Source of the DNA: Oscillospiraceae bacterium | Lineage (GTDB): Bacteria; Bacillota; Clostridia; Oscillospirales; Ruminococcaceae | DNA length: 40,237 bases | NCBI GenBank assembly: GCA_045593225.1 | Contig: JAZNWG010000428.1 | Span: 1 to 40,237 of the forward strand | Reading direction: 5' to 3' | In this document: piece after piece, positions 2,580-22,701 of the stretch | Layout of the letters: each line of letters starts with the position of its first letter | How positions within the stretch are numbered: the first letter of the stretch is position 1 | Translations under genes and position numbers: made by a program | The notes under the pieces: model-generated | Told to the model about the DNA's origin: nothing | Databases searched by the model: none | The model's input: only the letters and a program-made list of their open reading frames with translations

Positions 2580-2655
2580 GTGCTTGTAGCTCAGTTGGTA
2601 GAGCACCAGACTTTTAATCTGGGTGTCTCGGGTTCGATCCCCGACAGGCACACCA
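2580..2655 (+). tRNA. tRNA-Lys(UUU)
   Basis: full cloverleaf, loop CTTTTAA, CCA. Confidence 0.95.
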
Positions 2656-2778
2656 TTTAACATCATGTCTATTAACATTGTAACACCATGCTTAACAATC
2701 ATATATAACAAACAACGATGACAACTTTGTTTGACACCCTTGTTCAACATGCTACTAATCATGAAAGGGGTGAGATTG

Positions 2779-3063
2779 TTGACTACTATTACCGACATCA
2801 GGTTTCGCAACGTGAGTTCTATCGATTCGAATAAACAGCTTCTTGCTAATGTATCTATTATTATCAATAATGACTTCGTGATACATGACGTTCGAATCGT
2901 TCAGAACAACGGCAAAATTTTTGTGGCAATGCCTAATCGTAAAGAGGGTGATTCTTACAGAGATATCGTTCATCCGTTAACAACGGATATAAGAAAACAA
3001 TTCGAGGAAGATATACTCAGCGCATACGAAAGACATATAGCTACAATGGCTGCCATGTCTTAA
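2779..3063 (+). CDS. spoVG: SpoVG family protein
   Basis: ITDIR..FVIHDVRIV..FVAMPNRK..YRDIVHP; TTG start after AAGGGGTGA. Confidence 0.92.
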   Translation: MTTITDIRFRNVSSIDSNKQLLANVSIIINNDFVIHDVRIVQNNGKIFVAMPNRKEGDSYRDIVHPLTTDIRKQFEEDILSAYERHIATMAAMS

Positions 3064-3213
3064 CAACATGAATCGGACCTATGCGATTTAAAATAAGAAT
3101 AAGCGTGGAGTTCGGCGGTACGATAGTCTCCTTATCAAAACCGTCGCTTGCGTAACAATTGTGCACATGCATTTCAATAAATATAATAAAACAATATCGA
3201 AAGGAGAATCACA

Positions 3214-3579
3214 ATGACGTTTGCAGACAAGCAGAAGCGTATTCTGGATAAGCTCTGTGAAACAAACTATTCAAGCTTCGACGGCAATAAAGAGAAAGCT
3301 CTGGATTTCGTGGAAACACATATGCTGACGATTTTCGGCTTTACACCTGATATGACGCGTTTATACATACGAGAAACGGTTCGTGATATTGACTTGACTG
3401 CTGCTAAAAACGAAAATATTTCCAAGGCGGTCATAAGCATAAACGCATTGAACGATTTGTGTCGCGATCTTGGTCTTGAGCCGTTCGTAGACGCAGATAC
3501 GACAAATGCTGAAGCAACAAGCCGACTGATCGGCAAAATGGCTTCTCAGATCTTCAACGCAGGCATCAATAAGCATTAA
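3214..3579 (+). CDS. hypothetical protein, paralog of 3678-4214 (DUF3232-like)
   Basis: shared TNY..FDG..E.AL.F and LGLEPF.D.DT motifs; AAGGAG RBS. Confidence 0.75.
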   Translation: MTFADKQKRILDKLCETNYSSFDGNKEKALDFVETHMLTIFGFTPDMTRLYIRETVRDIDLTAAKNENISKAVISINALNDLCRDLGLEPFVDADTTNAEATSRLIGKMASQIFNAGINKH

Positions 3580-3677
3580 CTCGACTTTACACACCGACAT
3601 CTTGTTTACATTTTATTTTTCATACTTGCTGACACCATTGTTTAACACCATTTGTATCACTACGAGGAAATGACATC

Positions 3678-4214
3678 ATGAGTTTTATCAACAAACAAAA
3701 TGAGCTTCTTCAAGCGTTACACGGTACGAATTATGATTTATTCGACGGTGACCAAGAGGAGGCTCTTTCTTTTTTGCAGGACCAATTTGAAGCAATGCCC
3801 GATTATGCCAATGTTGTAATTCGTGAGCAAATCATGATACCGCTCTGGCAAAGCCGTTGTGAACCTGACGAATATCGAGAAAACATTCAGAGCATAGATC
3901 GATCCCGTCGTATTGCCCATGACAATGCAATCAACAGTATGAACATCGTCAACAGACTCAGCAGCAATCTTGGTCTTGAGCCATTTTTCGATGTTGACAC
4001 AAACGACAGACATGCCGTGGCAGATGCTGTCGGCAGTTACGTCTGTGAGATCTATAATGGTGAAATCGATAAAACATTTGACGACGCTGCTCTTAATCGC
4101 GTACAAGAGTATGATAGCAAAACTATTGCAAAACGCCTCAACGAAAGCATTCAGAACATTGCAAGCAAATTTGGTGATACACAGTTGCTTGACAATGAGC
4201 GAAACTATAGCTGA
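3678..4214 (+). CDS. DUF3232-like helical protein
   Basis: DRSRRIAHDNAI..NRL..LGLEPF motif; family name from recall. Confidence 0.7.
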   Translation: MSFINKQNELLQALHGTNYDLFDGDQEEALSFLQDQFEAMPDYANVVIREQIMIPLWQSRCEPDEYRENIQSIDRSRRIAHDNAINSMNIVNRLSSNLGLEPFFDVDTNDRHAVADAVGSYVCEIYNGEIDKTFDDAALNRVQEYDSKTIAKRLNESIQNIASKFGDTQLLDNERNYS

Positions 4215-4219
4215 AACAA

Positions 4220-4240
4220 ATCAGCGGCTCTGCCGCTGAT
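4220..4240 (+). terminator. GC hairpin without U-tract
   Basis: ATCAGCGGC-TCT-GCCGCTGAT just after stop codon. Confidence 0.45.
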
Positions 4241-4246
4241 CAATAT

Positions 4247-4319
4247 TGCAGATTAGAGAAACGGTCATCTCGCAAGGGTCATCTCCTTGAGACAGTTGGT
4301 TCAACCCCAACATCTGCAT
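4247..4319 (+). tRNA. atypical tRNA-Met-like (CAU), no encoded CCA
   Basis: TGCAGAT/ATCTGCA acceptor, CAAGG/CCTTG stem with GTCATCT loop, TTCAACC T-loop. Confidence 0.65.
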
Positions 4320-4325
4320 TCATTT

Positions 4326-4622
4326 CTTCAGGGCACAGGCTGCAGCCTGTATGAAGGCACATCAGGATGTCCGACACCATGTGTGAGAATCATGCTACCT
4401 AAAAGAACCTAACAGCACGGGCAACATGACAGCTGTGACAGCCGGAGAGACGGCATACCCTTGATTCGATACGACGAAATGCGTCGTTATCTATATTGGC
4501 ACAGTGACGGCAATAGTCGTCGCAAGCAGGGAGACTGTTCAACAGGAACAGCCATGGACAATGACGGCTGGGGCATTTGTCCAAACGAGCAGGCGCTAAG
4601 ATCATCCCTTAACGGCTGAACC
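4326..4622 (+). ncRNA. candidate structured ncRNA
   Basis: no credible ORF; hairpins such as GCCG-GAGA-CGGC, GCAG-GGAGA-CTGT, ACGACG/CGTCGT, CAGCC/GGCTG. Confidence 0.4.
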
Positions 4623-4658
4623 AAAATATATAAATACATTGAAAGGAGATACACGCAT

Positions 4659-4688
4659 ATGTCAAATGGTGGCATTCCTATCTTCTAA
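4659..4688 (+). CDS. micro-ORF MSNGGIPIF
   Basis: GAAAGGAG RBS; same pattern as 19910-19939. Confidence 0.45.
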   Translation: MSNGGIPIF

Positions 4689-4763
4689 AATACGGCGGAA
4701 GACCGCCGTCGGTCAGCTTATCACAACAATACCCTGTCTATGATCATCATAGGCAGACACACA

Positions 4764-4837
4764 TCGGAATTTAGTTTAAGTGATAAAACGCATGATCAAC
4801 ATATCATGAAACACAGGCTCGTGACCTGTAATTTCGA
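4764..4837 (+). pseudogene. degenerate tRNA
   Basis: TCGGAATT/AATTTCGA acceptor, CATGA/TCATG arm, altered T-loop CTCGTGA. Confidence 0.5.
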
Positions 4838-4869
4838 GGTTCGCTTTCTTTGCAACGAACATACTTTAC

Positions 4870-5028
4870 GTAAGTAATAACGAGTGTGCATAGTCATTAC
4901 TTGCTGTCAATCGGTTTTTTCTGGTATTTCTCCGATTGGCACTCCAGTATGCATGGAAACAGCACAATGGGTGCTGCACGAAGCTGATGTAGGTGGGTTC
5001 TCCTAGACCCAAGTGGTTAGCAGCTTCA
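4870..5028 (+). ncRNA. repeated structured RNA motif, copy 1 of 3
   Basis: shares CGAGTNYGCATAG loop, ATGCWTGGAA and RAGTGGTTR with 21121 and 21640; stems covary. Confidence 0.8.
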
Positions 5029-5034
5029 TTTCAT

Positions 5035-5080
5035 GACAGATTTCAATAAACCATGAGTGCAAATCTCATATCTGTCACCA
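5035..5080 (+). ncRNA. tRNA minihelix (acceptor + T arm + ACCA)
   Basis: GACAGAT/ATCTGTC, ATGAG-TGCAAAT-CTCAT, 11-nt linker. Confidence 0.65.
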
Positions 5081-5230
5081 CCGAAACTACCTGTGTGTCC
5101 ACAGGAAAGTCGGCATTTTAAACAAATGAGCAAGGTACAAAAACATCCAGCGGAGCAGTTTAAGCTCGTAAACGGAGAGTTGAAACGTCAGAAGTGTACA
5201 GCTGACACAGGTACTCGAACGCCTTGCTGC
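5081..5230 (+). ncRNA. candidate pseudoknotted ncRNA
   Basis: TACCTGTGT(5088)/ACACAGGTA(5205) crossed by AGCAAGGT(5129)/GCCTTGCT(5221). Confidence 0.5.
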
Positions 5231-5232
5231 AT

Positions 5233-5308
5233 CGGAACTTAGCTCAGTTGGCAGAGCATTCGGCTCATAACCGATCGGTCACAGGTTCGAACCCTGTAGT
5301 TCCGACCA
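5233..5308 (+). tRNA. tRNA-CAU (Ile2 or Met)
   Basis: cloverleaf, loop CTCATAA, CCA. Confidence 0.9.
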
Positions 5309-5311
5309 CAA

Positions 5312-5387
5312 CGGAATTTAGCTCAGCAGGTAGAGCAATGTCTTGATAAGGCAGAGGTCATAGGTTCAATCCCTATAATTCCGACCA
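5312..5387 (+). tRNA. tRNA-Ile(GAU)
   Basis: cloverleaf, loop TTGATAA, CCA. Confidence 0.9.
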
Positions 5388-5457
5388 ACAGCCTGCAGGC
5401 GACTAGGAATGCGTGCCATGCAAGAAACATCTTGCGTGGTGGGCTCCTAGTTTTTAT

Positions 5458-5537
5458 CGGAATGTAAGCTCAACTGGCAGAGCACAATGCGAGCACAGCA
5501 TTGAGGTTTATTGGTTCGATTCCAGTCATTCCGTCCA
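5458..5537 (+). tRNA. atypical tRNA-Cys-like (GCA)
   Basis: 6-bp anticodon stem, loop GAGCACA lacking U33, U73 discriminator, CCA. Confidence 0.55.
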
Positions 5538-5567
5538 GCCGACTTGTCAATGTCGTTAAACTTGATG
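5538..5567 (+). ncRNA. small H-type pseudoknot directly after tRNA CCA (copy 1)
   Basis: 29/30 identical to 21957-21986. Confidence 0.6.
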
Positions 5568-5826
5568 AGCAGAAGCGTGTTCGAAACGTAGTTGCGTCCC
5601 TGATTGCTTTCGAAGTAAGCCCTAGGATGAAAATGGTTCTCATCAAACGCAATACGATCGCTAATCCCCAAGCGGCTATGATGCATATAGCGTCGGGAGC
5701 TGGAACAGGTAAAGTAGCAAATGCATCTTGTGAAATATCGTCAGCGGGTAGGGATATCCCGCAACTAACGTCTCTGAACGATAAATCAGTAGTGTAACAA
5801 CGAAGTTCCCTGTCGTTCAGATAAAT

Positions 5827-5902
5827 GCTGATATAGCTTAGTCGGTAAAGCGGTTGATTCGTAATCAACAGACCAACGGTTCAAGTCCGTTTATCAGCTC
5901 CA
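5827..5902 (+). tRNA. tRNA-Thr(CGU)
   Basis: cloverleaf, loop TTCGTAA, CCA. Confidence 0.92.
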
Positions 5903-6004
5903 AGGAGATGGTTGGTGTTTCCGTTTTCAAACAACTCCTAAACAAATGTCTCTGAACGATAAATCAGTAGTGTAACAACGAAGTTCCCTGTCGTTCAGAT
6001 AAAT

Positions 6005-6080
6005 GCTGATATAGCTTAGTCGGTAAAGCATTTGATTCGTAATCAAAAGACCAACGGTTCAAATCCGTTTATCAGCTCCA
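6005..6080 (+). tRNA. tRNA-Thr(CGU)
   Basis: second copy with compensated anticodon stem. Confidence 0.92.
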
Positions 6081-6292
6081 TTGTCATGTGAAATGAGATA
6101 TGCGACCAGTAGTAACGCCTTAAGTGGATGAGAGATCGCATATCAATAGTCTGTGGAAACAAATTCCGTGAGGTTGTATGCGGCTTGGATTGTAAATCCA
6201 ATGAGAAAGCGTACGTAAAACAAAAGGCGTGTGAGTTACCCGATAACTACCAAACCAGCGTGATAGGTGGAAAGCTTATCAACACATGACAA
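6081..6292 (+). ncRNA. candidate ornate ncRNA
   Basis: 10-bp closing helix TTGTCATGTG/CACATGACAA, internal hairpins, pseudoknot ACGCCTT/AAGGCGT. Confidence 0.65.
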
Positions 6293-6295
6293 ACT

Positions 6296-6403
6296 AAATG
6301 ATCACATTGCACAGAACGACTGTGGTAATCGCAGACGCCAAACAGGAGCCACAAGTAACGTGTGTGACATATTTTTGCAACGTCTGTCAATGTGATTTCA
6401 TTT
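6296..6403 (+). ncRNA. candidate structured ncRNA
   Basis: closing helix ATCACATTG/CAATGTGAT. Confidence 0.45.
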
Positions 6404-6522
6404 GCATCAGTATCATGCCGGAAAATGAGGCTGTGTATACTGTGTATTATAGAGAGAAGTCATATCTGTATAAACACAGTTGTATAGCTGCGATGTTGGT
6501 TCGAGTCCAGCCTGATGCACCA
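6404..6522 (+). ncRNA. tRNA-like RNA with over-long anticodon arm
   Basis: GCATCAG/CTGATGC-ACCA, D arm, TTCGAGT T-loop; 59-nt hairpin in place of anticodon arm. Confidence 0.75.
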
Positions 6523-6537
6523 ATACATTTTATATAT

Positions 6538-6646
6538 GTTCATGTAGCTCAGAGTAGCAACAAAGTCGACGAGCCTTAAGGCGTTGTTCGGTAGAGCGCT
6601 GGCTGAAAGCCGCCAGAGGTCACAGGTTCAAATCCTGTCATGAACA
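6538..6646 (+). ncRNA. tRNA-like RNA with D-loop insertion and 8-nt anticodon loop
   Basis: GTTCATG/CATGAAC, GCTC..GAGC D stem with about 30-nt insert, TTCAAAT T-loop. Confidence 0.65.
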
Positions 6647-6661
6647 CTAATAAAAACACAT

Positions 6662-6817
6662 GGCGATCATTCTCACATCAGATCTCAGCGAGCATACTTG
6701 CTTTGACGCGATGAAATACGGGAACGAGATAGGTATTCTCGAAAAGATCAAAGAGGTATGCATCTTTGATACAAGTACAGTCTGACTGAGGTGGTTCGAA
6801 TCCACTGATCGTCGCCA
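6662..6817 (+). ncRNA. tRNA acceptor/T scaffold carrying a multi-hairpin domain
   Basis: GGCGATC/GATCGTC-GCCA, GGTGG-TTCGAAT-CCACT, TCAGA/TCTGA stem enclosing about 105 nt. Confidence 0.7.
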
Positions 6818-6943
6818 CACGTGAAATTGCAGACTTCGTATCATAAGCAAATTACAGCCATCGGCATTGTACTATGTGAAGATGTCATGCGACAGAGGAC
6901 GAGGACTTCGAGAGGCGGACGTTGCCTGCAATTTCATACATAT

Positions 6944-7054
6944 GGTTCAGATATGCAAGAGGACAAAGCAGCGGACTGTAACTCCGCGCGTAAATGCTTG
7001 AGCGCGCAAGTGGCATATTACGCTTCGCAGGTTCGAATCCTGCTCTGACCACCA
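6944..7054 (+). tRNA. tRNA-Tyr(GUA) with very long variable arm
   Basis: GCGGA-CTGTAAC-TCCGC, about 39-nt variable region, bulged acceptor, CCA. Confidence 0.8.
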
Positions 7055-7138
7055 CCGCAGCCATAATGCGGCATGTGTATTCTCCTTATAACACATATGG
7101 ACTGCTGTTTCGGCATAATGCCGACGGCAGTTACACAT

Positions 7139-7212
7139 TGGGATGTCACCAAGAGGTAAGGTAACGGACTTTGACTCCGTCATCGTGGGTTCGAATCCCA
7201 CCATTCCAACCA
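7139..7212 (+). tRNA. tRNA-Gln(UUG)
   Basis: cloverleaf, loop CTTTGAC, CCA. Confidence 0.93.
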
Positions 7213-7299
7213 ATTAAACGCATATGCGAGATGCGTCACAAAAAAAAGGCAATTTGCCATCGCATACTTATTAAACAACAGCAAAGGAGATCAAGTGAC

Positions 7300-7428
7300 A
7301 TGACATTTTCCGCTAATTACAAGACAAAGTATTATACCAATCGTATCAATACTCTCGGCAAAAAGCCCCAGAACGCAAATCTGGTCAAAAAGGCTAAGCG
7401 CAATCTCAAAAGACTCATGGTTTGCTGA
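7300..7428 (+). CDS. small basic protein (42 aa)
   Basis: AAAGGAG RBS; Lys/Arg rich. Confidence 0.6.
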   Translation: MTFSANYKTKYYTNRINTLGKKPQNANLVKKAKRNLKRLMVC

Positions 7429-7446
7429 TCATATCAGGTGGTGTAA

Positions 7447-8196
7447 ATGATAAACATTAAGCTCCCCGAAAAGGGTGACATTCTGACACTTAAAAACTCG
7501 AATGGAACGGATCCTGCTGAACAGCTTACAACAAGAACAACGTTAATTAAAGTATTGACGAACAAAGGCTTCTATGACCTCGAAGAATTTGATCTGCCGG
7601 ACGTTGCTGCAGTCGCAGCAACTGCGTCAACAACAGTTGCACCTGAGCAGAAAAACAAGAAAAAACACAGTCTGAACGCAGTCTTGATGCTGATAATATT
7701 CATATTATTGGCGTTGCTGAGCGTAGCGGGTGTGTATATCATTGACAACAGCAAGAACGTGAACGGTCTGATTGCAATAATAGATACACCTATCGACGTC
7801 TCCGGCATCCCCGATGGTTATGATGAACTCACTATACCGATCACTGACCCGACTATCGATAAGCTTAACGAAAAGCTTGAAATGAATAAGATGTGCATCA
7901 ACATGAACAGCACCATCGACTTCTTATCTTGTGATTCAACTGGTTATTTTGGTATCAAAAACGATGTTCGCAATAACTATCCGCAGTTTGTCACAATTAC
8001 ATTGGACAGTAATGGTGCACAGATATATCAGACTGGTCTGATCGACGTTGGCGACTGTATTTTATACGATATGCTTGACGTCAAATTGCCAAAGGGTATG
8101 CATGCATGTACAGCAACCTTTACACAAGTAAACACGGAAACAAATACCGCCTGCGGTCAAGCATCAGCAAAGGTCACGATAACCGTAAACAGCTAA
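7447..8196 (+). CDS. membrane-anchored protein with extracellular beta domain
   Basis: KKK followed by TM segment; C-terminal beta-rich domain. Confidence 0.8.
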   Translation: MINIKLPEKGDILTLKNSNGTDPAEQLTTRTTLIKVLTNKGFYDLEEFDLPDVAAVAATASTTVAPEQKNKKKHSLNAVLMLIIFILLALLSVAGVYIIDNSKNVNGLIAIIDTPIDVSGIPDGYDELTIPITDPTIDKLNEKLEMNKMCINMNSTIDFLSCDSTGYFGIKNDVRNNYPQFVTITLDSNGAQIYQTGLIDVGDCILYDMLDVKLPKGMHACTATFTQVNTETNTACGQASAKVTITVNS

Positions 8197-8222
8197 ACAG
8201 GAAAGGAAAGGAATTGATCATC

Positions 8223-9836: not shown

Positions 9837-9873
9837 AACAAACAATGCGGCATTACAATAATGCCGCTCACAT

Positions 9874-9948
9874 GGCTCGTTAGTCAAGCGGTTAAGACAC
9901 CTCTCTTTCACGGAGGTAGCGAGGGTTCGACTCCCTCACGAGTCACCA
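9874..9948 (+). tRNA. tRNA-Glu(UUC)
   Basis: cloverleaf, loop CTTTCAC, CCA. Confidence 0.95.
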
Positions 9949-9992
9949 TCTGTACTATTATAATAAATGACCCAAACGGAAGGAAATACATT

Positions 9993-10769
9993 TTGGAATA
10001 CAATGACAGACTGGAATTATTTAATAGTTGCATAAATTTGGCCATGAGTGTAGCTATAAAACATTGGTCATACCAATATGTTGAACAGGAAGATATGCAA
10101 CAAGAAGCGCTATTGGCACTATGGCGAGCAACTGAGCGTTATGATGAAAACAAAGGCGCTTTTACAACATATGCAACACATTACATACGTTGTTCATTGA
10201 ACACTGTTGGCAATAAATATCGTTATGGTCACATAGGCGTCACAGAGCCATTCAAGCAGGCATTGCACATAATCAAAGAATGCGATGAAAACGATCGACC
10301 TATCGAAGCAATACTTGCTGAACACGAACATACACCGGCTGTAAAAGACTATGTGAAATTTTTATATCATAACAATCACCATTTTGACAGTCTCAACAGA
10401 TGTCTCAATGACGATACAGATGTTACACTGTGCGATACGATAGCGTCTGCTGAAGATATCGAACACACAGTATTATCTGCACTCAACTACAAAACCTTAT
10501 TGGAGCTGGTATTGACTGATTTTCGTCAGCAATATGAGAGCAAAATGAAAGGTGTGCGCGATCGCAACAGACAAGATCATCTTTTTGATTGTTTCGTCAG
10601 ACAATTGTTCGAATCACGAACAAACGCATCTATTGCCGATGAAGTAGGTGTATCAAGAGAAGCCGTCCGCACACAATTTAATCGCTGGTATAAACAGCTT
10701 CGAGAATTGATAACAACCAAATACCTTGCGCCAAAAACCAAAACATCGTGGTCATACAACGAAGAATGA
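9993..10769 (+). CDS. sigma-70 family RNA polymerase sigma factor
   Basis: region 2 EDMQQEALLALWRATERYDENKGAFTTYA; region 4 HTH SIADEVGVSREAVR; TTG start after GGAAGGA. Confidence 0.88.
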   Translation: MEYNDRLELFNSCINLAMSVAIKHWSYQYVEQEDMQQEALLALWRATERYDENKGAFTTYATHYIRCSLNTVGNKYRYGHIGVTEPFKQALHIIKECDENDRPIEAILAEHEHTPAVKDYVKFLYHNNHHFDSLNRCLNDDTDVTLCDTIASAEDIEHTVLSALNYKTLLELVLTDFRQQYESKMKGVRDRNRQDHLFDCFVRQLFESRTNASIADEVGVSREAVRTQFNRWYKQLRELITTKYLAPKTKTSWSYNEE

Positions 10770-11505: not shown

Positions 11506-11582
11506 GGCGGAGTAGAGAAGTGGTCTATCTCACCAGCCTCATAAGCTGGAAACCGCAGGTTCGAATCCTGCCTTCGCAACCA
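11506..11582 (+). tRNA. tRNA-Met(CAU), initiator-like
   Basis: 1:72 mismatch, loop CTCATAA, CCA. Confidence 0.88.
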
Positions 11583-11585: not shown

Positions 11586-11655
11586 GTTGGAAATAGCACA
11601 TTTGGTTAAGTGCGATATCGGTCAATGTGGATTCAACTCCCACTTTCCATCACCA
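11586..11655 (+). ncRNA. anticodon-less tRNA-like RNA (copy 1)
   Basis: acceptor, GCAC/GTGC D arm, 13-nt linker GATATCGGTCAAT, T arm, ACCA. Confidence 0.65.
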
Positions 11656-12815: not shown

Positions 12816-14651
12816 GTGAAAATGACATTAAGAGTAAGACTCATGAGCCTTTGTATGATAGCGGTAGCAGGGACGAGTGCTCTGCTTATGACATCAGCAG
12901 CTATAACAGCGTATAATGTGACCTATACGAACAACGTCCATTTAGGCGAAAAACTGGCAGAAAACAGCGCAGCGTCAATATATGACGAAATGAGTTACCT
13001 TGAAGAATGTTTGGCAGAAGCCGAGATATCTGAAAACGGTGATTCAACATTCGATCGTGTGAGCTACTGGTCAAGTGCTGATTATGCGGTGGAAAATGGT
13101 GATAGCATTATCACGGGCTTAGCGGACGGTGATTTTGTACTTTTGCCCATTGCCGAAAATGACGGCACACCGGTAAACCTTGCCGCGTACAAATCGAACG
13201 GAAAGATACTTGTTGGTGAGTTAGCCAATGACTATCTGGGAGCATATTTTGACGGTGTTTCAGATACTGAGTTTGCATTTATAACAAACGCAGACGGCGA
13301 TGTTGTCGTAGCATCAGACAAAGATTATCTGAAATCAGGAACAAATATCAGAGATCTTGAGCTTACACAAGTAATGGATCGTTTGGATACCGGCGAAAGC
13401 GGCTGTTATACAGGCGCATCACCCGTATTGAATGGGCGAAAGGCACTGATAAACTACGCAAAAGTAGGCGACAGTGATTATTGCATTGTATATGGTGCAG
13501 ACTATGACCAACTGTTCAGCGCTTATTACAATATGCTGATCATTCTTTCTTGCATCCTTATTACCGGTATAGTCGCAGCTGCAACTGCCACTATGTTCAT
13601 ATCCAAAGGTATTCTCACTCCTGTCGTAAAAGCCACCGACAGACTGACAAGACTTTCTGATGGCGATCTCACCAGCATTTGCGAACAGAATAATCGCAAC
13701 GATGAAACACAGGTGCTTGCCGAATCCTTGCAGAAAACAGTATCTGCGTTGGCTACATATATCAAAGATATAGATATCGTGCTTTCAGCGATCAGCAACG
13801 GCAATTTGACTGTAAATAGTTCTGTAAATTATAACGGCGATTTTACAGGCATTCGCAAATCTTTGGACAACATAACGACGCAGATGCGCGAAACAATGTC
13901 TGCCATGACGCTGGTTGGTGAAAAAGTATTGGCAAGCTCTGATAACCTCTCTGTCAACGCACAGCAGCTGGCAGAGAATACTACAAAAGAAGCAGCTACT
14001 ATCGAAGAGATCAACGCAATGGTGTCGAACATTGAAGCTGATAACATCAGAAATGCCGAACTTACTGAAAACGCTGTAAAGCTGTTAGCAGATGTAATGC
14101 AAAACATTGACGAAGGCGGCAAAAACGTCAAAGATATGACTGTTGCCATGAGCAACATCAAAGACACTTCAGACGGAATACAGAAGGTGATCAGATTGAT
14201 CGAGGACATCGCTGTTCAAACCAATCTGCTCGCTTTAAATGCAAGTATAGAAGCAGCAAGAGCCGGTGCAGCAGGTAAGGGCTTCGCAGTGGTTGCCGAT
14301 GAAGTAAGAAATCTTGCTTCTAAATCAGCAGAAGCTGTTTCCGACACAATGAAGCTGATCGAGTGCAGTGATAGTGCTGTTGAAATGGGCGCAACCATTG
14401 CAACAAATACACAAACGTCATTTGAAACAATAACAGACGCAACAAAGCAATTTGAACAGCTTATACGCAATATCTCTACAGCATCTGAGGAACAGAAGAA
14501 AGCTATGCGTGAAATAGCTTCAGGTCTGGAAAATGTCACAATGACAATACAATCAAATGCTGCCTCTGCAGAAGAAAGTGCGGCTGCGAGCCTTGAGCTT
14601 AAAACACAAGCAGACATTCTTAATAAACAGGTTTCAATGTTTAAAATATAA
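12816..14651 (+). CDS. methyl-accepting chemotaxis protein (TM-sensor-TM-HAMP-MA)
   Basis: [37 protein letters not shown] signalling hairpin; two TMs. Confidence 0.97.
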
Positions 14652-14681
14652 AATTGCGGTATAGCGAAAGGAGTATCAAAC

Positions 14682-15563
14682 ATGGGAGATATTTTACTGG
14701 AAACAGGCACTAACGAGCTGGAGCTGCTCGTTTTCACAGTAGGTACACAGAAATTTGGCGTAAACATTGCCAAAGTAACGGAGATCATGCGATATCAGAA
14801 GATAACGCAGATACCCGGTTGTGAGCCAGAACTCGAAGGCATCTTTACGCCCAGAGAAAACGCAATAAGTGTAGTCAACTTACATACTGTATTAAAGCGC
14901 GAAATGCCTGACAATACGGAAGGTCTGCTCCTTATTTGTCATTTCAACAGACTTGACATTGCGTTCCACGTAACCTCCGTACAGGGTATCCAGCGCATTT
15001 CTTGGGAATCGATCGATAAATCGCCTGAAATTGCAAACAGCGGAACATCGACGTTGACCACAGGTATCGTTAAGATCAATGAAGACATTATTCTTGTTCT
15101 TGATTTCGAAAAAATCGTATCCACGTTGAATTCGTCTGCCATATTGGATACTGACGGTATCGAACCGACAACCGATGCAACAGCTGCAGAGCGACATATC
15201 GTCATTGCGGAAGACTCCGCGTTCCTCAACACGATGATCGTAAAATCTTTGAGTACAGCCGGATACACTAAGGTATCACATTTTGAAAACGGCAGAGACG
15301 CTTGGGATTTCATTTCCAACTTGCCCAATGCTGCAGATACTATCGCATGTGTTATTTCAGATATCGAAATGCCCAAGATGGATGGACACAATCTGTGTAA
15401 GAGAATAAAGTCCGACGATAAACTGAAGAGCATTCCTGTATATCTGTTCTCTTCACTGATAAATGAACAGATGATCATAAAAGGCGAAAGCGTAGGTGCA
15501 GATGCTCAGTTCTCAAAACCGCAGATAAACGAGCTTATCGAGTTTATGAAAAAACACATCTGA
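14682..15563 (+). CDS. cheV: chemotaxis protein CheV (CheW-REC)
   Basis: ILLETGTNELELL..FGVNIAKVTEI; receiver IAEDS..SDIEMPKMDG..FSS..KP. Confidence 0.95.
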   Translation: MGDILLETGTNELELLVFTVGTQKFGVNIAKVTEIMRYQKITQIPGCEPELEGIFTPRENAISVVNLHTVLKREMPDNTEGLLLICHFNRLDIAFHVTSVQGIQRISWESIDKSPEIANSGTSTLTTGIVKINEDIILVLDFEKIVSTLNSSAILDTDGIEPTTDATAAERHIVIAEDSAFLNTMIVKSLSTAGYTKVSHFENGRDAWDFISNLPNAADTIACVISDIEMPKMDGHNLCKRIKSDDKLKSIPVYLFSSLINEQMIIKGESVGADAQFSKPQINELIEFMKKHI

Positions 15564-16438: not shown

Positions 16439-16458
16439 TTTATCGTTTTATACCAACA

Positions 16459-17170: not shown

Positions 17171-17242
17171 TTCCTTGTAGCTCAGTGGTCAGAGCACATG
17201 CTAACGTGCATGCTGTCATCAGTTCAAATCTGATCAAGGAAG
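17171..17242 (+). pseudogene. tRNA-like, 6-nt anticodon loop, no CCA
   Basis: TTCCTTG/CAAGGAA, CATGC-TAACGT-GCATG. Confidence 0.6.
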
Positions 17243-17249
17243 TAAATAT

Positions 17250-17327
17250 GTTGCATGTAGCTCAATCAGGTAGAGCGTCGGACTGTGGATCCGATCGTTG
17301 TGGGTTCAAGTCCCATCATGCACCCCA
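17250..17327 (+). tRNA. tRNA-His(GUG)
   Basis: G-1, loop CTGTGGA, C73-CCA. Confidence 0.9.
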
Positions 17328-17328
17328 T

Positions 17329-17474
17329 GTTGAGACAGCTCTCTGGATAGAGCGGCTGACGTTCCGTCCGTAGAGGTTCGAGTCCTCTCTTGTGTCATGG
17401 ATGACAGCGGGTAGCGGGTGATAGGCGAAAGCGACGAACAGCAGGTATGGGTTCGACTCCCATTCTCAACACCA
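17329..17474 (+). ncRNA. double-elbow tRNA-like RNA with two T arms
   Basis: outer tRNA with CCA; anticodon stem leads into a permuted T-arm/acceptor-hairpin/D-like module. Confidence 0.75.
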
Positions 17475-17538
17475 ACAGGCGGTTCAACGTTCACTGAACC
17501 TTAATGTGCTTCTGATAAAATGGAAGAAGCCGCCTCAG

Positions 17539-17756
17539 ATATGATACGTGGAACAGGCAAGTCGGCTTAAAAGCAGCCATCTTTTAAAGAGTGAACACTG
17601 TCCGCGCAGCCACCGGAAAGTCGAAATTCCTATTTTCTGTCATGGTTTTAGCTTTGTTTTCGACGGTCTCGAACCGCAACATGAACAGAAAAGGCTGCAA
17701 GGATAACAAAGCCTTATCGTTCTTTGGCGTAACAGCACACCTGTTTTCGGTCATAT
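17539..17756 (+). ncRNA. 23S rRNA H43-H44 (uL11-binding) mimic with inserted domain
   Basis: GGCTTAAAAGCAGCCATCTTTTAAAGAGT...GCGTAACAGCACAC closed by AACAGG/CCTGTT. Confidence 0.8.
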
Positions 17757-17812
17757 TGAAAAAAAACACATCCCATAACCAATAACCAAAGATATTTCCC
17801 AAAGGAGGGGGA

Positions 17813-17851
17813 ATGCCGAATGATGCGATTTACAGTTTACTAGCCGCGTAA
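17813..17851 (+). CDS. micro-ORF MPNDAIYSLLAA (ssrA-tag-like)
   Basis: AAAGGAGG RBS; stop codon in GCCGC-GTAA-GCGGC hairpin loop. Confidence 0.5.
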   Translation: MPNDAIYSLLAA

Positions 17852-17946
17852 GCGGCGATATCACAACAAAAGATGATAATACGTGAATTTTTCTGAATAG
17901 ATAATCTACGCCGCAGTAGTACCAATTGCGACTGCGGCGTTTGTAT

Positions 17947-18023
17947 CGAAACATAGCTCAGTTTGGTAGAGCACGCGGTTTGGGACCGTGAGGCCGCAGG
18001 TTCGAATCCTGTTGTTTCGACCA
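17947..18023 (+). tRNA. tRNA-Pro(UGG)
   Basis: cloverleaf, loop TTTGGGA, CCA. Confidence 0.94.
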
Positions 18024-18155
18024 TTATATATGGATGACCATATGCGAAAGCATACGAGTCGTTATTTCAAGTTGCAATCAGATGGAGTATTGACCAAGTT
18101 TGAATCTTTGCGTAAAAGGCTCTTGGCGCTTTGTTCTTGACACCCATATGTTGAT

Positions 18156-18242
18156 GCCGGAGTGATGGAATTGGCAGACTTAGCTGACTCAAAATCAGTT
18201 GGTAGAAATACCGTGCGGGTTCAAGTCCCGCCCCCGGCACCA
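18156..18242 (+). tRNA. tRNA-Leu(CAA)
   Basis: type II cloverleaf, loop CTCAAAA, CCA. Confidence 0.93.
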
Positions 18243-18243
18243 T

Positions 18244-18548
18244 CGAAGCATCGCGTGATGCAAACAACGCACCTGAGTTATCGCAGAGTTACACATGTCG
18301 TAACGGATCGAAAGATTGAAGCGGATTAGAAGGTGTATCCATGCTGCAGCAAATCAAAACAATCTTCTTCCCTCAAGGTCATGATAAACGGACATGGCAC
18401 TTGCGAAGATTGTGCAGACAAGGCGCTTTGTCCGTCAGCCTACAAAACGTCTGCAAACTGAGATAAACACACGTGGAAACGCATGCGTCGTTGGTCAGTT
18501 GTCTCAGGAACTCACCTCAAACGGCAGCGGTTGACGAATCGCTGCTGA
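18244..18548 (+). ncRNA. candidate ornate ncRNA
   Basis: multiple helices and loop-loop pairing ACGGACA(18388)/TGTCCGT(18429). Confidence 0.6.
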
Positions 18549-18551
18549 CAT

Positions 18552-18628
18552 GGCGGAGTAGAGAAGTGGTCTATCTCACCAGCCTCATAAGCTGGAAATC
18601 GTAGGTTCGAATCCTGCCTTCGCAACCA
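18552..18628 (+). tRNA. tRNA-Met(CAU), initiator-like, second copy
   Basis: near-identical to 11506-11582. Confidence 0.88.
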
Positions 18629-18666
18629 AAATTTATCTTATCGAATCACAACAAAGGAGGAGCTAT

Positions 18667-19011
18667 ATGGATACACAAATAGCATGGCGACTTAAGATCG
18701 TCGTACTGTTAAGCCTTGCGCTATGCTTAGCTGTGCTGATTCTAATGCCTATCAATCAGTCAATGCAGAAAAGATTCGCAGAACGTGAAATGTCAGAAAC
18801 AATTACATCAGGCGAGATCTCACGCAAAGAGCTTGTCAACCCTACAACAGGCTTGTTTACATCGACAGATGCTGAATATCGCCTGTATATTGAATACACG
18901 TGGGAATACGACGACGAAGAAATTACTTCGGAAAAATATTTCAGTGTACCATTAGAAGTCTATAATGCTTATGACATCGGCGACACATTCGATTCCGCAA
19001 AGTTGCACTAA
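18667..19011 (+). CDS. membrane-anchored hypothetical protein
   Basis: AAAGGAGG RBS, N-terminal TM. Confidence 0.8.
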   Translation: MDTQIAWRLKIVVLLSLALCLAVLILMPINQSMQKRFAEREMSETITSGEISRKELVNPTTGLFTSTDAEYRLYIEYTWEYDDEEITSEKYFSVPLEVYNAYDIGDTFDSAKLH

Positions 19012-19198
19012 ACCGTAACTTTGAAAATATATACGAAAGAAGGTGATGTGCCATGAAGCGCTTTGGTATCGATGGTTAATATTGAATTTTTTTCGCGGGC
19101 CGGGTCAGATATCTGACCCACAGCGTTAGCTCATACGCTATATAAAAAAGGACGCCGGAGCCGACAGACCTAACGTTATAAATGTCTGTCTAACTTTT

Positions 19199-19271
19199 GT
19201 CTTGACTTTACGAAAGCTCTGCCTGTGATAAGACACAGCGCATGACGGTTCGAATCCGTCTCGAGGCATCA
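19199..19271 (+). pseudogene. degenerate tRNA-like RNA
   Basis: GTCTTGA/TCGAGGC acceptor, perfect GACGG-TTCGAAT-CCGTC T arm, reduced D arm. Confidence 0.55.
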
Positions 19272-19299
19272 AATATCAAATATGAAAAGAGATGACAAC

Positions 19300-19863
19300 A
19301 TGTCTAAAACAACTGTTTTGATCAAACAGAGTATTATCGCAAACGTTTTAAACACATCAAATCTCACACAGATGAACATCGATTGCCTTTATGATTTGTT
19401 ATTGAACACAGAGAATGTTACTAAACTTAAACCGTTTAATATGCTGCGACATATTGACGATCTAACCGAACAAACAGGTGTATTTAAGCTGTGGTTAAAC
19501 GTCAACGCTCGACTGGATGAACAACCCGATCAATATATTGCGGGAAAAAGAGTGACGCGAGCATTACAGTCGATCCATCGTGATTACACAAATGTTTTAC
19601 CTGAAAAACTGCGTAGCGTAAACACTCTGACAATGATGTTCAGATTATTTTTTATCCCGAACGACGTTATTGATAACGCAACTTGTGACGTTCAGTGCGC
19701 AGCCACAGCTGTCTCATCGTTACTCCGAGCAATGATATTGCTTGATCTGATATTCTCGAATGAAACAGATATCAATGGTACAACACCTGAATACTGGCTG
19801 AATCGTCTGCTCACAGAAGCTCAATACAATATAAACGGTATTGCCGCGAGAATAGGCTGTTAA
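19300..19863 (+). CDS. hypothetical protein
   Basis: long ORF; start 19282 or 19300. Confidence 0.7.
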   Translation: MSKTTVLIKQSIIANVLNTSNLTQMNIDCLYDLLLNTENVTKLKPFNMLRHIDDLTEQTGVFKLWLNVNARLDEQPDQYIAGKRVTRALQSIHRDYTNVLPEKLRSVNTLTMMFRLFFIPNDVIDNATCDVQCAATAVSSLLRAMILLDLIFSNETDINGTTPEYWLNRLLTEAQYNINGIAARIGC

Positions 19864-19909
19864 CACGATATTGACCGACAAATAATTCACATAGAAAGGA
19901 CACATCAAT

Positions 19910-19939
19910 ATGAGATACGGTGGAACAACTCTTTTCTAA
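19910..19939 (+). CDS. micro-ORF MRYGGTTLF
   Basis: GAAAGGA RBS; same pattern as 4659-4688. Confidence 0.45.
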   Translation: MRYGGTTLF

Positions 19940-19951
19940 AAACAACGATAT

Positions 19952-20335
19952 GGGGGCGTAAAGGTTTCGACAGGGACTTGAAGCTCTGATAAGCATGCAC
20001 AGGCTGGTGGGTTAACCTGTATAAAAGCCGACCATTGTTGAATAACATTCGACAACATCAGATACGCTGTAGCTGCTTAAGCTACTAGGCATCCATCAGG
20101 ATGCTGAAAACGGCCGTGGTAACGCTCTAGTCTGCTAGACCACCGCTTTCACCTTAAAGACTTGGCTCTACTCACAACCGAGGTTGCGTGAGATGAAGCT
20201 TTATAGACCTCTAAGCGACCTGTATGGAGGCGGAATCCACCAAGCAGGAGCCGACAACAGTAAAACTACCTAAGCATGTAGAAAGTCAGATTGAATGGTT
20301 TTTGGACACGGGTTCAATTCCCGTCGCCTCCACCA
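19952..20335 (+). ncRNA. ssrA: tmRNA
   Basis: GGGGGCGTAAAGGTTTCGAC 5' end, G3-U70, T arm + ACCA, tag frame ..DNIRYAVAA-stop. Confidence 0.96.
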
Positions 20336-20442
20336 ATATTAAATATTGAGATGGTTCTCGGACAGAGAGCCAATACCCTCTGTCCTTTACCATATTATCA
20401 TTATTGTAACAACGGAATAACAATGTGAAAGGAAGATGTATT

Positions 20443-21024
20443 ATGGCAAAAGAATTAACTTACGAAGAGGGTAACGTGTATTTCGATAACATCGACGCGG
20501 CAATCCGGAAAGCAGAAGGTATAACCGACGAACAGCGTACCCTTGCTGAAAGCGCCAATGATGCATTGCGTGACGGCAAACTGGCAGGTCTTGACGGCGA
20601 TGAACTGAAAGAACATGCGTTCAAAGAAATAAGCAAAAAAATGACGCTTGATGAGCTCGGTTACGAACCGCCGGCACGTCCAGCCGAAATGACTGACGCT
20701 GAATATGAAGCATATTGCGAACAGAGCGAAGCCGCTTTCTTGGAAAACGATGATGCAAGCGAGCTGTACGAAAAGCTGTATGAGTCAGCCATCTCCGACA
20801 AAAAGCTGAACGCTGAGTTTGACGATGCAATTAAAAATATGCCTGACATCGAGACTGCACCTGCCAAAACAAATACTGTAACTGCCGAAAGCACCGCTGT
20901 CAAAACTGAAACAAGTAACAGAAAGAGTGTCATACAGCGCCTTCAGGAAACAGCTCAGTCTGTCAAAAATTATGCTGAACAGCAGCAAGCACAGAATACA
21001 ACAGATATGACACAGTCGATCTGA
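20443..21024 (+). CDS. acidic hypothetical protein
   Basis: AAAGGAAG RBS before ATG 20443. Confidence 0.8.
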   Translation: MAKELTYEEGNVYFDNIDAAIRKAEGITDEQRTLAESANDALRDGKLAGLDGDELKEHAFKEISKKMTLDELGYEPPARPAEMTDAEYEAYCEQSEAAFLENDDASELYEKLYESAISDKKLNAEFDDAIKNMPDIETAPAKTNTVTAESTAVKTETSNRKSVIQRLQETAQSVKNYAEQQQAQNTTDMTQSI

Positions 21025-21064
21025 TCGTATGCGACACAGCAGGCTCTTCTGAGCCTGTCACATA

Positions 21065-21113
21065 CGGTGAACCCTGATGGCTAAACAAGGCTCGACACCT
21101 TGTCACCGGCTCA
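21065..21113 (+). ncRNA. second minihelix-like RNA (degenerate 3' end)
   Basis: CGGTGA/TCACCG plus CAAGG-CTCGACA-CCTTG. Confidence 0.45.
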
Positions 21114-21120
21114 TAATTAA

Positions 21121-21283
21121 GCAGATATATCGCGAGTTCGCATAGCTGTATATCTGTATCAATCGGTTTCGCGCATTATTTCCGATTGATACCTCTCAAA
21201 TGCTTGGAAGTAACACACAGGGTGTTACATGAAGCTGTCTTTGGCAGGCATCCACCATTAAGCCTGAGTGGTTAGCAGCTTCA
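21121..21283 (+). ncRNA. repeated structured RNA motif, copy 2 of 3
   Basis: see 4870-5028. Confidence 0.8.
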
Positions 21284-21289
21284 CAATAC

Positions 21290-21366
21290 CGGAATATGGC
21301 TCAGTTTGGTAGAGCGCTGCGTTCGGGTCGCAGAGGTCGCAGGTTCAAATCCTGTTATTCCGACCA
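21290..21366 (+). tRNA. tRNA-Pro(CGG)
   Basis: cloverleaf, loop TTCGGGT, CCA. Confidence 0.94.
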
Positions 21367-21501
21367 AAAGGATCGAAACGCGCATTCACGGCTTGCGGTT
21401 TCGTAAAAACGTATACGATAGGATGCAAATATCCGTGATAAATTGCATCAGACAAGGATAAAACAGTCGGACGAAACCTTAGAGACACCTTGTCACGATC
21501 T

Positions 21502-21569
21502 GCTGAAATAACATGGTTGGCCTCATGTGATATCGGATAATGTCAGTTCAATTCTGACTTTCAGCACCA
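21502..21569 (+). ncRNA. anticodon-less tRNA-like RNA (copy 2)
   Basis: GCTGAAA/TTTCAGC-ACCA, D arm, linker GATATCGGATAAT, GTCAG-TTCAATT-CTGAC. Confidence 0.72.
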
Positions 21570-21639
21570 ATGACAGACGATAGTCTGTCACCTTATGCAG
21601 TTCTGTGGTCTTTCTTGACTGCTGAATGTTCATTGTTCA

Positions 21640-21816
21640 TGCAGTATTTGCGAGTTTGCATAGCAAATATTTGCAATCAATCGAAATCCATATAACAGTT
21701 TCGATTGAACCTTTCAAAATATGCATGGAAGCAGCTATCAGGATGCTGCATCGAGAACGTTTTGGTGAGTCTAAATGACAGGTTCCTCCTCATTACTCAA
21801 GTGGTTGACGTTCTCA
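21640..21816 (+). ncRNA. repeated structured RNA motif, copy 3 of 3
   Basis: see 4870-5028. Confidence 0.78.
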
Positions 21817-21879
21817 CGCTTATCGGCAAATGTCCTCGGACTATGCCTGAGAAAGACGGATGCGTCTGTCTTTCTCTAT

Positions 21880-21956
21880 CGGAGTATAGCTCAGACGGTT
21901 AAAGCACTCGCTTCATACGCGAAAGATCGCTGGTTCAACTCCAGCTACTCCGACCA
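21880..21956 (+). tRNA. tRNA-Met(CAU), elongator-like
   Basis: cloverleaf, loop TTCATAC, CCA. Confidence 0.85.
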
Positions 21957-21986
21957 GCCGACTTGTCAACGTCGTTAAACTTGATG
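21957..21986 (+). ncRNA. small H-type pseudoknot directly after tRNA CCA (copy 2)
   Basis: 29/30 identical to 5538-5567. Confidence 0.6.
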
Positions 21987-22131
21987 GGCACATTCGCCCG
22001 AACTCATGACGACCAAACAAAATGTCGCTATCATGACGACATACGATATAAAAGCAGACTTACTCATCTGCCCACGGCAAAACACAGCTTTGCAGGAGTG
22101 CAAGAGCAACGTGTTAAGCTATGATATTCGT

Positions 22132-22202
22132 ATGACGGTAGCTCAGTCCGGTAGAGCAGGGACAGAACTCTCGCGTCGTCGGTTCAAATCCGACCCGTTG
22201 TT
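22132..22202 (+). pseudogene. tRNA-like with shrunken anticodon arm, no CCA
   Basis: canonical D and T arms; GGGA-CAGAAC-TCTC arm. Confidence 0.6.
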
Positions 22203-22217
22203 TTGTTTGGTATATAC

Positions 22218-22306
22218 GTTTGCTTAGCTCAAACGGCAGTTATTATCGCAGCTGGTAGAGCACGGATCACTCCGGGATACAAGTTCAACTCTTGTAGCAA
22301 ACACCA
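22218..22306 (+). ncRNA. tRNA-like RNA with D-loop insertion and 4-nt anticodon loop
   Basis: GTTTGCT/AGCAAAC-ACCA, CGGA-TCAC-TCCG. Confidence 0.65.
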
Positions 22307-22406
22307 ACAGGCGCACACACTACAATCCAAACAAGCATATTTTTACAAGCTTTTGACGTATATGTTTGAACCTCCTTATAAACAATACCGTGTGCGCCAT
22401 TCCCTT

Positions 22407-22498
22407 GGAAATGTACCCAAGTGGTTGAAGGGGGCGGTCTTGAAAACCGCTAGGCGGGTCACTCCCGTGCGTGGGTTCGAATCCCACCATTTCCGCCA
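22407..22498 (+). tRNA. tRNA-Ser(UGA)
   Basis: type II, loop CTTGAAA, G73-CCA. Confidence 0.95.
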
Positions 22499-22608
22499 AG
22501 CCGAACGGCTGACATAGTTTGGAGCAGGCTTTTTGACCCTGCATGTAGATACTCGGCTTTAGGAGTCGGCAATGTCTTATCCGAGTTAAACGGACGCCGA
22601 CAGTTTGG

Positions 22609-22701
22609 GGAAGCATACCCAAGTGGTTGAAGGGGTCGGTCTACTAAACCGAGAGGCGGGTCAACTCCCGTGCGTGGGTTCAAATCCCACTGCTTCCGCC
22701 A
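22609..22701 (+). tRNA. tRNA-Ser(ACU)
   Basis: Ser body paralogous to 22407; loop CT-ACT-AA. Confidence 0.88.

Follow-up and report, generated by a model that had tools for sequence, protein, structure and literature searches.

Why mobile elements carry clusters of transfer RNA (tRNA) genes, and what role the small RNAs within such clusters have, is an old question. The conjugative megaplasmid pMP7017 of Bifidobacterium breve was reported to carry a transcribed array of 20 tRNAs and a transfer-messenger RNA (tmRNA; PMC10832533). The trn operon of Anabaena PCC 7120 was described as a single transcript, which is rapidly cut into tRNAs and induced by ribosome stress, and for L-arrays a role as a sponge against toxin ribonucleases (RNases) was proposed (PMC8421152). 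From the tRNA region of phage T4 two small RNAs named RNAC and RNAD were described, with no role assigned in that source (PMC3014915), and engineered tRNA scaffolds with a cargo in the anticodon arm were found to be processed and stable (PMC3753655). Here, a 20-kb cluster of tRNA genes and other predicted non-coding RNAs (ncRNAs) from an Oscillospiraceae bacterium was analyzed, located at positions 2580 to 22701 of a stretch of 40,237 nucleotides (nt), in the following called the window. An earlier note on this DNA had read it as an RNA array of tRNAs, remodelled tRNA scaffolds and mimics of the translation machinery.

The kind of locus is known, being like an L-array or the pMP7017 cluster, and what is new is how dense the undescribed, conserved mimics are on a plasmid. 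As on pMP7017, at least 20 divergent tRNAs, a tmRNA and extra structured RNA occur in one region of what is likely a conjugative megaplasmid of about 200 kb (PMC10832533). Unlike on pMP7017, they are spread over 20 kb among open reading frames (ORFs) and accompanied by 13 remodelled tRNA bodies, a mimic of 23S ribosomal RNA (rRNA) and three further structured families. The extra RNA named for pMP7017 is the manA motif, and expression was shown there, whereas it is predicted here (PMC10832533). The supernumerary tRNAs in one orientation, acquired horizontally, plasmid-borne and associated with rtcB, are in agreement with the L-arrays and the trn operon (PMC8421152): all lie on the plus strand of low-GC, plasmid-like contigs, and the array was not found in the 400 family genomes searched. 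In contrast, the Anabaena array is compact and mostly canonical, and its operon structure and stress induction were shown there (PMC8421152). Compared to the tRNA array unit of Tran et al. (2015; PMC4758250), the region holds more than the minimum of 20 tRNA genes (25 canonical, 29 by ARAGORN), and its density of 1.2-1.4 per kb (25-29 genes in 20.1 kb) is below the minimum of two per kb. The resemblance to RNAC and RNAD, small RNAs from a tRNA region, is one of description only (PMC3014915). A tRNA top half bearing a cargo instead of the anticodon arm is shared with the engineered scaffolds, here in natural and varied form (PMC3753655).

The mimic of the uL11 site of 23S rRNA

The RNA at 17553-17744 was compared with the 23S rRNA of a relative, using the E. 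coli numbering and the roles which we take the positions of the GTPase-associated centre to have. Both halves of this centre (helices H43 and H44), the junction and the closing helix were found, including their paired and conserved positions. U1060/A1088, A1067, A1095, G1091-C1100 and C1092-G1099, presumably tertiary contacts or ligand sites, are all present. Unlike the rRNA centre, the RNA is free-standing and self-closed, with an A at position 1068, a C at 1056, the 134-nt insert at 1090/1091 and no other 23S or 5S sequence nearby. An ordinary 23S rRNA gene or fragment was rejected, since flanking rRNA is missing, the match to the relative's 23S rRNA extends over only 17 nt and no large-subunit rRNA match was obtained in the genome bin (G000). 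No other rRNA mimic was found in comparison with the 23S rRNA, the 5S rRNA and the upstream 1.5 kb of the relative's operon (the full 16S rRNA lies outside this comparison).

A search pattern derived from the 5′ half matched 39 viral loci, of which 33 were judged by inspection to be the same RNA and six to be chance matches. At least three tRNAs were located within 5 kb in 21 of these 33 copies. For the analysis of covariation, loci that lacked a match to the junction or to H44 were dropped, as were two loci one base out of register, resulting in 18 distinct cores from 42 loci and the window. The search pattern had fixed the bases 1062-1079, which carry no evidential weight, while the closing helix and the pairs 1057-1081, 1058-1080 and 1082-1086 were free to vary. 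The pair 1053-1106 was kept in all 18 cores with four pair types, followed by 1057-1081 (17 of 18), 1082-1086 (17 of 18, two pair types) and 1058-1080 (16 of 18, four pair types).

Two Nostoc genomes and a Dolichospermum plasmid were found to carry copies that lack the insert. These cyanobacterial copies (L076:9990-10048; L077; L086:2376-2575) belong neither to rRNA operons nor to tRNA arrays and form part of a conserved element of about 200 nt that is located 5′ of a hypothetical gene and a ThiF-family gene. The family was also found on a 199-kb Lachnospiraceae contig (G588:C57, the contig of locus L078), which carries two tRNA clusters and a tmRNA. The 5′ half matches 10 phage records and is annotated in none of them. 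No description of a stand-alone uL11-site mimic was found in the literature searched, and the main text of PMC5737381 mentions neither L11 nor rRNA.

Judged by these alignments, 17553-17744 is a genuine structural mimic of the uL11 site of 23S rRNA, for which binding of uL11 is predicted. This bears out the 23S rRNA mimic proposed before at the level of one domain with covariation among its homologues, and extends the mimic from phages to a conjugative plasmid and, in insert-less form, to cyanobacterial DNA. The copies in cultured phages make the predicted uL11 binding directly testable.

Remodelled tRNA bodies and further structured RNAs

In total, 13 tRNA-shaped units with acceptor and T arms and an enlarged, shrunken or otherwise altered anticodon or D arm were identified (Table 1). 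About 15 had been counted before, often with CCA; the class itself proved to be real, and an NCCA end is encoded in eight of the units and absent in five. In a scan for T arms, 39 hairpins were found on the plus strand within 2400-22800, none on the plus strand elsewhere and three on the minus strand, and chance would supply a 7-bp acceptor partner for 5.6% of T arms. The scan for whole units resulted in 29 ends in the window, none on its minus strand and one in 404,322 strand-bases of other plasmid-like contigs. Complete remodelled units are scarcer in other arrays, with six in 26 other loci that have at least three tRNAs. A double-elbow (YrlA-like) fold of the unit 17329-17474 is 8 kcal/mol above the minimum-energy fold and was kept as an idea only.

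Table 1. Predicted features of the cluster. Positions refer to the window.
Feature	Position	Strand	Source
tRNA/ncRNA cluster with interleaved ORFs	2580..22701	+	ARAGORN, Rfam
Unit from an initiator-like Met/Ile tRNA; altered anticodon loop, without CCA; may be decaying	4247..4322	+	intact homologues in G587; region skipped in X2
Short hairpin motif (22 nt), widespread in phages	4436..4457	+	
Three-helix module common to window and L085/G587, compensatory changes	4497..4611	+	
M3 structured RNA, paralogue 1 of 3 (about 175 nt)	4865..5037	+	
tRNA-Cys-like unit: GCA, U73, CCA; non-canonical anticodon loop (A33)	5458..5537	+	
H-type pseudoknot and hairpin directly after CCA, copy 1	5538..5585	+	
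tRNA body (acceptor, D and T arms, CCA); 59-nt rod replaces anticodon arm	6404..6522	+	
Unit with enlarged D arm, altered anticodon arm, ACTA end	6538..6649	+	
156-nt RNA: acceptor stem, T arm and GCCA enclosing multi-hairpin cargo	6662..6817	+	
tRNA-Tyr-like unit (GTA): bulged acceptor stem, long variable arm, CCA	6944..7054	+	Rfam
ORF with sigma-70 region 2, cargo; reading frame takes in upstream tRNA	9861..10769	+	Pfam
70-nt short unit: 6 of 7 pairs in the acceptor stem, T loop a variant, CCA	11586..11655	+	
ORFs for a methyl-accepting chemotaxis protein and CheV-like protein, cargo; region skipped in X2	12816..15563	+	Pfam
Unit with 6-nt anticodon loop, without CCA	17171..17245	+	ARAGORN
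146-nt unit: Arg-like D arm, two T-loop hairpins, acceptor stem, CCA	17329..17474	+	
Stand-alone mimic of the GTPase-associated centre of 23S rRNA (H43/H44; positions 1051-1108 in E. coli); 134-nt insert at 1090/1091	17553..17744	+	
Weak unit: T arm, G-U-rich acceptor, ATCA end; other possible 5′ end 19060	19199..19271	+	
tmRNA: G3-U70, CCA, frame ending AVAA-stop; distinct from host tmRNA on C106	19952..20335	+	Rfam RF00023
M3 paralogue 2 of 3	21116..21292	+	
68-nt mini unit, one arm missing, CCA	21502..21569	+	
M3 paralogue 3 of 3	21632..21825	+	
H-type pseudoknot and hairpin directly after CCA, copy 2	21957..22002	+	
Unit with shrunken anticodon arm, no encoded CCA; same defects in G587 homologue	22132..22205	+	Rfam
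Unit with enlarged D arm, shrunken anticodon arm, CCA	22218..22306	+	

The conservation of the units was analyzed in close relatives (including X2, X5, X6 and X7), which are contigs from four animal-associated metagenomes (wildlife, gut, faeces). These contigs span the RNA-rich parts with about 3-13% of the letters changed and skip several ORFs and modules. The detailed comparison covered 6390-7070, with 24 substitutions listed. In X2, the 59-nt rod of unit 6404 differs at 12 positions, and three double changes keep Watson-Crick pairs, one other a G-U pair. No change affects the acceptor and D arms, and a single loop base is the only difference in the T arm. In a transition-biased simulation, at least three compensations were obtained with P of about 0.013. 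Unit 6662 shows three differences each in X2 and X7 over 156 nt (97-98% identity in relatives) and is in X2 as conserved as the tmRNA (5 of 165 vs. 15 of 411 positions changed). Unit 6538 is precisely missing from X2 and X7 and unchanged in X6. In the more distant relative G587, the homologue of unit 22132 likewise has a shrunken anticodon arm and no CCA, whereas unit 4247 looks decayed because G587 holds intact versions. On the minus strand of the same relative (L212; G587:C1:13700-19300), three related tRNA-shaped RNAs of about 102-106 nt with a GGCAGG variant T loop and a mini unit were noticed, none of which is called by Rfam. According to these alignments, modules come and go among relatives as discrete cassettes, and for some units the structure is kept by selection. 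Taken together, the modules are very probably under selection.

Besides the units, further structured RNAs were found. In M3, 9 of 36 predicted pairs are compensatory across the three paralogues; M3 patterns gave no viral match and two chance matches elsewhere. The 28-nt pseudoknot family comprises two copies in the window and eight phage-like or metagenomic loci, all with tRNAs. Within this family 97% of the cells are paired and 5 of 12 pairs are compensatory, a value reached in none of 500 shuffles. The hairpin covaries, and the compensatory change in stem 2 occurs in one copy that was found by BLAST and not by the pattern. The pseudoknot at 5538 and 21957 resembles pseudoknot 1 (pk1) of one element-borne tmRNA (L078) and not that of the host tmRNA. 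A pk1 mimic was rejected, since matches in 10 of 300 other genomes are approximately at the control level and none of these 10 loci has a tmRNA. The 22-nt hairpin is present on at least 120 viral contigs (L089-L168), often 5-10 nt upstream of a tRNA, and in the 20 loci scanned no Rfam family was found at the motif. None of M3, the pseudoknot, the module 4497-4611 and the 22-nt hairpin of the window matches Rfam. On this comparison, three structured families beyond the 23S mimic covary and match no Rfam family.

The checks named in the earlier note were thus answered in its favour on two points, as no module matches Rfam beyond tRNA and tmRNA and several modules covary in their homologues (6404, the 23S mimic, M3, the pseudoknot and 4497). 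Two other points gave negative results: mimics of tmRNA products, or a second tmRNA, were not found in the cluster, and the large ncRNAs GOLLD and ROOL, named there as neighbours of phage tRNA arrays, gave no match to the Rfam covariance models up to E = 10. The best YrlA/Y RNA match reached 24.9 bits (cut-off 69) and runs across adjacent tRNAs; no TROVE (Ro60) partner was found in G000, which is 77% complete. The cluster is not GOLLD, ROOL or YrlA as described in the Rfam models and in the sources used (PMC5737381; 10.1101/2024.12.08.627333). Group I or II introns were not detected by Rfam. A hepatitis delta virus-like (theta) ribozyme was found neither in Rfam nor with our own nested double pseudoknot descriptor (0 matches, without a positive control).

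Proposed release of the RNAs and competing explanations

ARAGORN detected 29 tRNA genes in 2580-22701, every one on the plus strand, and Rfam 28 tRNAs and one tmRNA. The anticodon loop is canonical in 25 of the 29 (exceptions: 4247, 5458, 17171 and 22218), which is close to the about 26 normal tRNAs counted before. These 25 serve 14 amino acids, with none canonical for Ala, Arg, Asp, Cys, Trp and Val. Among them are the tRNA-Ser(ACT) at 22609 and a pair of Met(CAT) tRNAs (11506 and 18552) in which positions 1 and 72 are mismatched. The tmRNA, which had also been seen before, was confirmed by its Rfam score (121 bits, full model), the G3-U70 acceptor with CCA and a tag frame with AA as its last residues, although it is missing from the ARAGORN calls. 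Outside the window, the host bin has its own tmRNA on C106 and 33 further tRNA calls. The anticodon stems or loops of some tRNAs differ from the host isoacceptors, e.g. Gly(TCC), Met(CAT) variants and Ser(ACT), a feature shared with the tRNAs by which phages escape anticodon nucleases, which are decoding tRNAs in that case (PMC10264068).

Several single tRNAs are worth describing. The near-identical Met(CAT) pair (11506-11582 and 18552-18628) has a G1-A72 mismatch and an initiator-like D stem and lacks three consecutive G-C pairs in the anticodon stem, judged by what we take to be the initiator determinants. The tRNA-Ser with the anticodon ACT (A34; 22609-22701) was also found in G587 (L212), which further has a tRNA-Ile(TAT). 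The tRNA-Thr(CGT) and its upstream hairpin form a 140-nt tandem duplication (96%; 5763-6080), which is a single copy in X2 and X5.

The cluster is dispersed among ORFs and is not a pure RNA array: 16 ORFs occupy 9,839 of the 20,122 nt, with Pfam names including SpoVG, DUF3232, sigma factor, methyl-accepting chemotaxis protein and CheV-like. The RNA modules all lie on one strand. Compared to shuffled sequences, the folding of the spacers reached z < -2 in 18 of 35 and z < -3 in 12 of 35 cases. A helix starts within 6 nt after the tRNA 3′ end in 21 of 35 cases (expected 10.4) and ends within 8 nt before a tRNA 5′ end in 24 of 37 (expected 13.6), both counts being inflated somewhat by neighbouring tRNAs. 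The proposal of structured spacers with helices abutting tRNA ends therefore stands at about twice chance, but closure of whole spacers by one terminal helix does not exceed it (15 of 35 vs. 13.0 expected). A GC-rich hairpin without a U tract is repeated at 4692, 11236 and 17127, 3′ of short ORFs or AT-rich stretches.

In the proposed mechanism, the acceptor/T top halves would be recognised by host RNase P and 3′-end enzymes, which would set free the tRNAs, the bodies with their cargo and the spacer RNAs, following the precedents of the Anabaena trn operon and the engineered scaffolds. The intact acceptor and T arms would act as processing and stabilising handles, as in these scaffolds. The canonical tRNAs and the tmRNA may top up the host pool, as on pMP7017, and the anticodon arms of some tRNAs are unlike those of the host isoacceptors, which would be expected if they evade nucleases. 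The non-decoding tRNA bodies and the 23S mimic would most likely work off the ribosome, the former as decoys or as platforms for proteins with affinity for the tRNA top half. The 23S mimic may bind free uL11 or factors targeting the uL11 site; as RelA requires uL11, it could also dampen the stringent response. The released stable RNAs would likely sustain translation for the plasmid during stress or defence. With all units on one strand and helices abutting tRNA ends, punctuation by tRNAs is plausible. Release as discrete RNAs is considered likely, and for the whole mechanism including the decoy roles the chances are about even. A more general reading is tentative and rather doubtful: megaplasmids and large phages may have in common a kit, so far undescribed, of RNAs that mimic the translation apparatus, with at least five families on this plasmid, in which uL11 or its attackers are titrated by a free copy of the GTPase centre, so that the stringent response is muted, tRNA scaffolds display cargo or soak up toxins acting on tRNA ends, and tRNA punctuation delivers the kit from one strand. 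In any case, the locus shows that RNA modules under selection can make up the spacers and "pseudo-tRNAs" of a tRNA cluster, among them an almost complete mimic of a functional centre of the ribosome.

Several observations weigh against this proposal. Protein cargo takes up about half of the region, and promoter-like sites show no excess over chance (37 vs. 44.5 expected) that would mark the transcript limits. Two of the six changed pairs in unit 6404 break the predicted structure, X2 and X7 share nearly all changes, so that the covariation represents about one lineage, and among 26 substitutions listed elsewhere four break predicted pairs while six in predicted pairs preserve them. The remodelled set in G587 is largely different, which means fast turnover, and most units and spacers have no homologue beyond close relatives. 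Five of the 13 units lack CCA. In the 23S mimic set the conserved H43 bases were imposed by the search pattern and H44 partly by the filter, and in 151 genomes and 61 sources (150 other genomes, 60 other loci) the M3 model recovered only the three copies on which it was trained. The grouping of the contigs as one plasmid relies on composition and one relative and not on an assembly.

The turnover and the missing CCA ends would also be found in an ordinary supplementary tRNA/tmRNA cluster, in which the odd units are decaying or rearranged pseudogenes, the spacer structure is a by-product and the 23S mimic alone is a separate functional passenger. Unit 4247, a damaged version of tRNAs intact in G587, fits this explanation, and each of the five most plasmid-enriched codons has a cognate plasmid tRNA, as was reported for pMP7017 (PMC10832533), although over all codons the compensation is not significant (P = 0.20). 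Decay does not predict intact acceptor and T stems where long paired cargo replaces arms, nor the compensatory changes in 6404, M3, module 4497 and the pseudoknot family, nor the tmRNA-like conservation of 6662 in X2, and the defects of 22132 recur in the distant relative; we regard it as unlikely. The modules could instead be functional for the plasmid's own machinery, as processing or stability signals or as sites or substrates for its RNA polymerase, RtcB, RlaP and Thg1, and not as decoys against the host. All four proteins are encoded on the element, helices and the pseudoknot lie directly at tRNA ends and M3 seems to be lineage-specific. However, unrelated phages and cyanobacterial DNA also carry the 23S mimic and the pseudoknot family, which points to conserved host targets, and this explanation is likewise improbable.

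That the enlarged units are interrupted tRNA genes, which are spliced (e.g. by RtcB) or read directly as decoding tRNAs for the six missing amino acids, is very unlikely. It is suggested by the lack of canonical tRNAs for exactly these amino acids and by the RtcB on the element, as well as by the GCA and U73 of 5458, the Arg-like D arm of 17329 and the match of 6662 to the host tRNA-Asp in G73 and the first three pairs at the top of the acceptor. But the flanks of the 6404 rod rebuild no U33 loop, the relatives vary that position, several units are shortened and not interrupted, and no group I or II intron was found in Rfam.

The host element and neighbouring genes

The window is the entire contig G000:C428 and has a GC content of 43.5%, compared to 48.4% in the surrounding genome bin. 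Its tetranucleotide signature is common to about 20 contigs with a total of about 240 kb. For 17 fetched contigs of this cluster, 125 ORFs of at least 150 amino acids (aa) were scanned with Pfam. A replication initiator (Rep3), a relaxase (MobL) and two coupling proteins of a type IV secretion system, which characterize a conjugative plasmid, were found on the co-binned contigs, together with a ParM-like actin and a topoisomerase. Further matches were a two-barrel RNA polymerase (2,101 aa), RtcB, RlaP, Thg1, ToxN and ClpP. VirB4 was not named among these ORFs, the element being in pieces. The reading as a tailed phage was rejected, as no head, tail, portal, terminase or capsid genes were detected by Pfam (125 ORFs) or PHROGs (81 proteins), with two small contigs and ORFs below 150 aa outside the scan. 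The distant relative G587 (L085) is a single 198-kb record that carries the polymerase (52-63%), MobL (74%), the UvrD of the window (70% on the DNA level), SpoVG and the same subtype of the 23S mimic. Because these occur on one record there, the contigs were read as one megaplasmid, and the window likely belongs to a conjugative megaplasmid of about 240 kb. SpoVG, Spo0A and MobL point to a Firmicute as the host of the element.

A close relative of the array was not found in 40 related genomes, the 400 family genomes, PLSDB or INPHARED, where only tRNAs matched, and the metagenome scan returned distant phage-like arrays and no plasmid relatives. The plasmid polymerase had no match in 398 class genomes at E ≤ 1e-60 and distant relatives only in PLSDB, with 23-30% identity to hypothetical proteins on plasmids of Streptomyces, Gordonia, Rhodococcus, Staphylococcus and Lactococcus. 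Its gene (G000:C414:12448-18750, L071, minus strand) encodes a single-chain two-barrel enzyme with a DFDGD motif. No viral relative of the DUF3232 protein was found. Near the toxN-family gene of the plasmid (L067:17542-18240), ToxI-like tandem repeats were not present. Three tandem genes at L061:19464-19976 and L062:4464-5744 encode a sigma-70 region 4 fused to the C-terminal domain of the RNA polymerase alpha subunit. Directly 3′ of the cluster (22726-35778), two very large ORFs of 1,813 and 2,532 aa with DUF5018 repeats were found, which are likely surface proteins.

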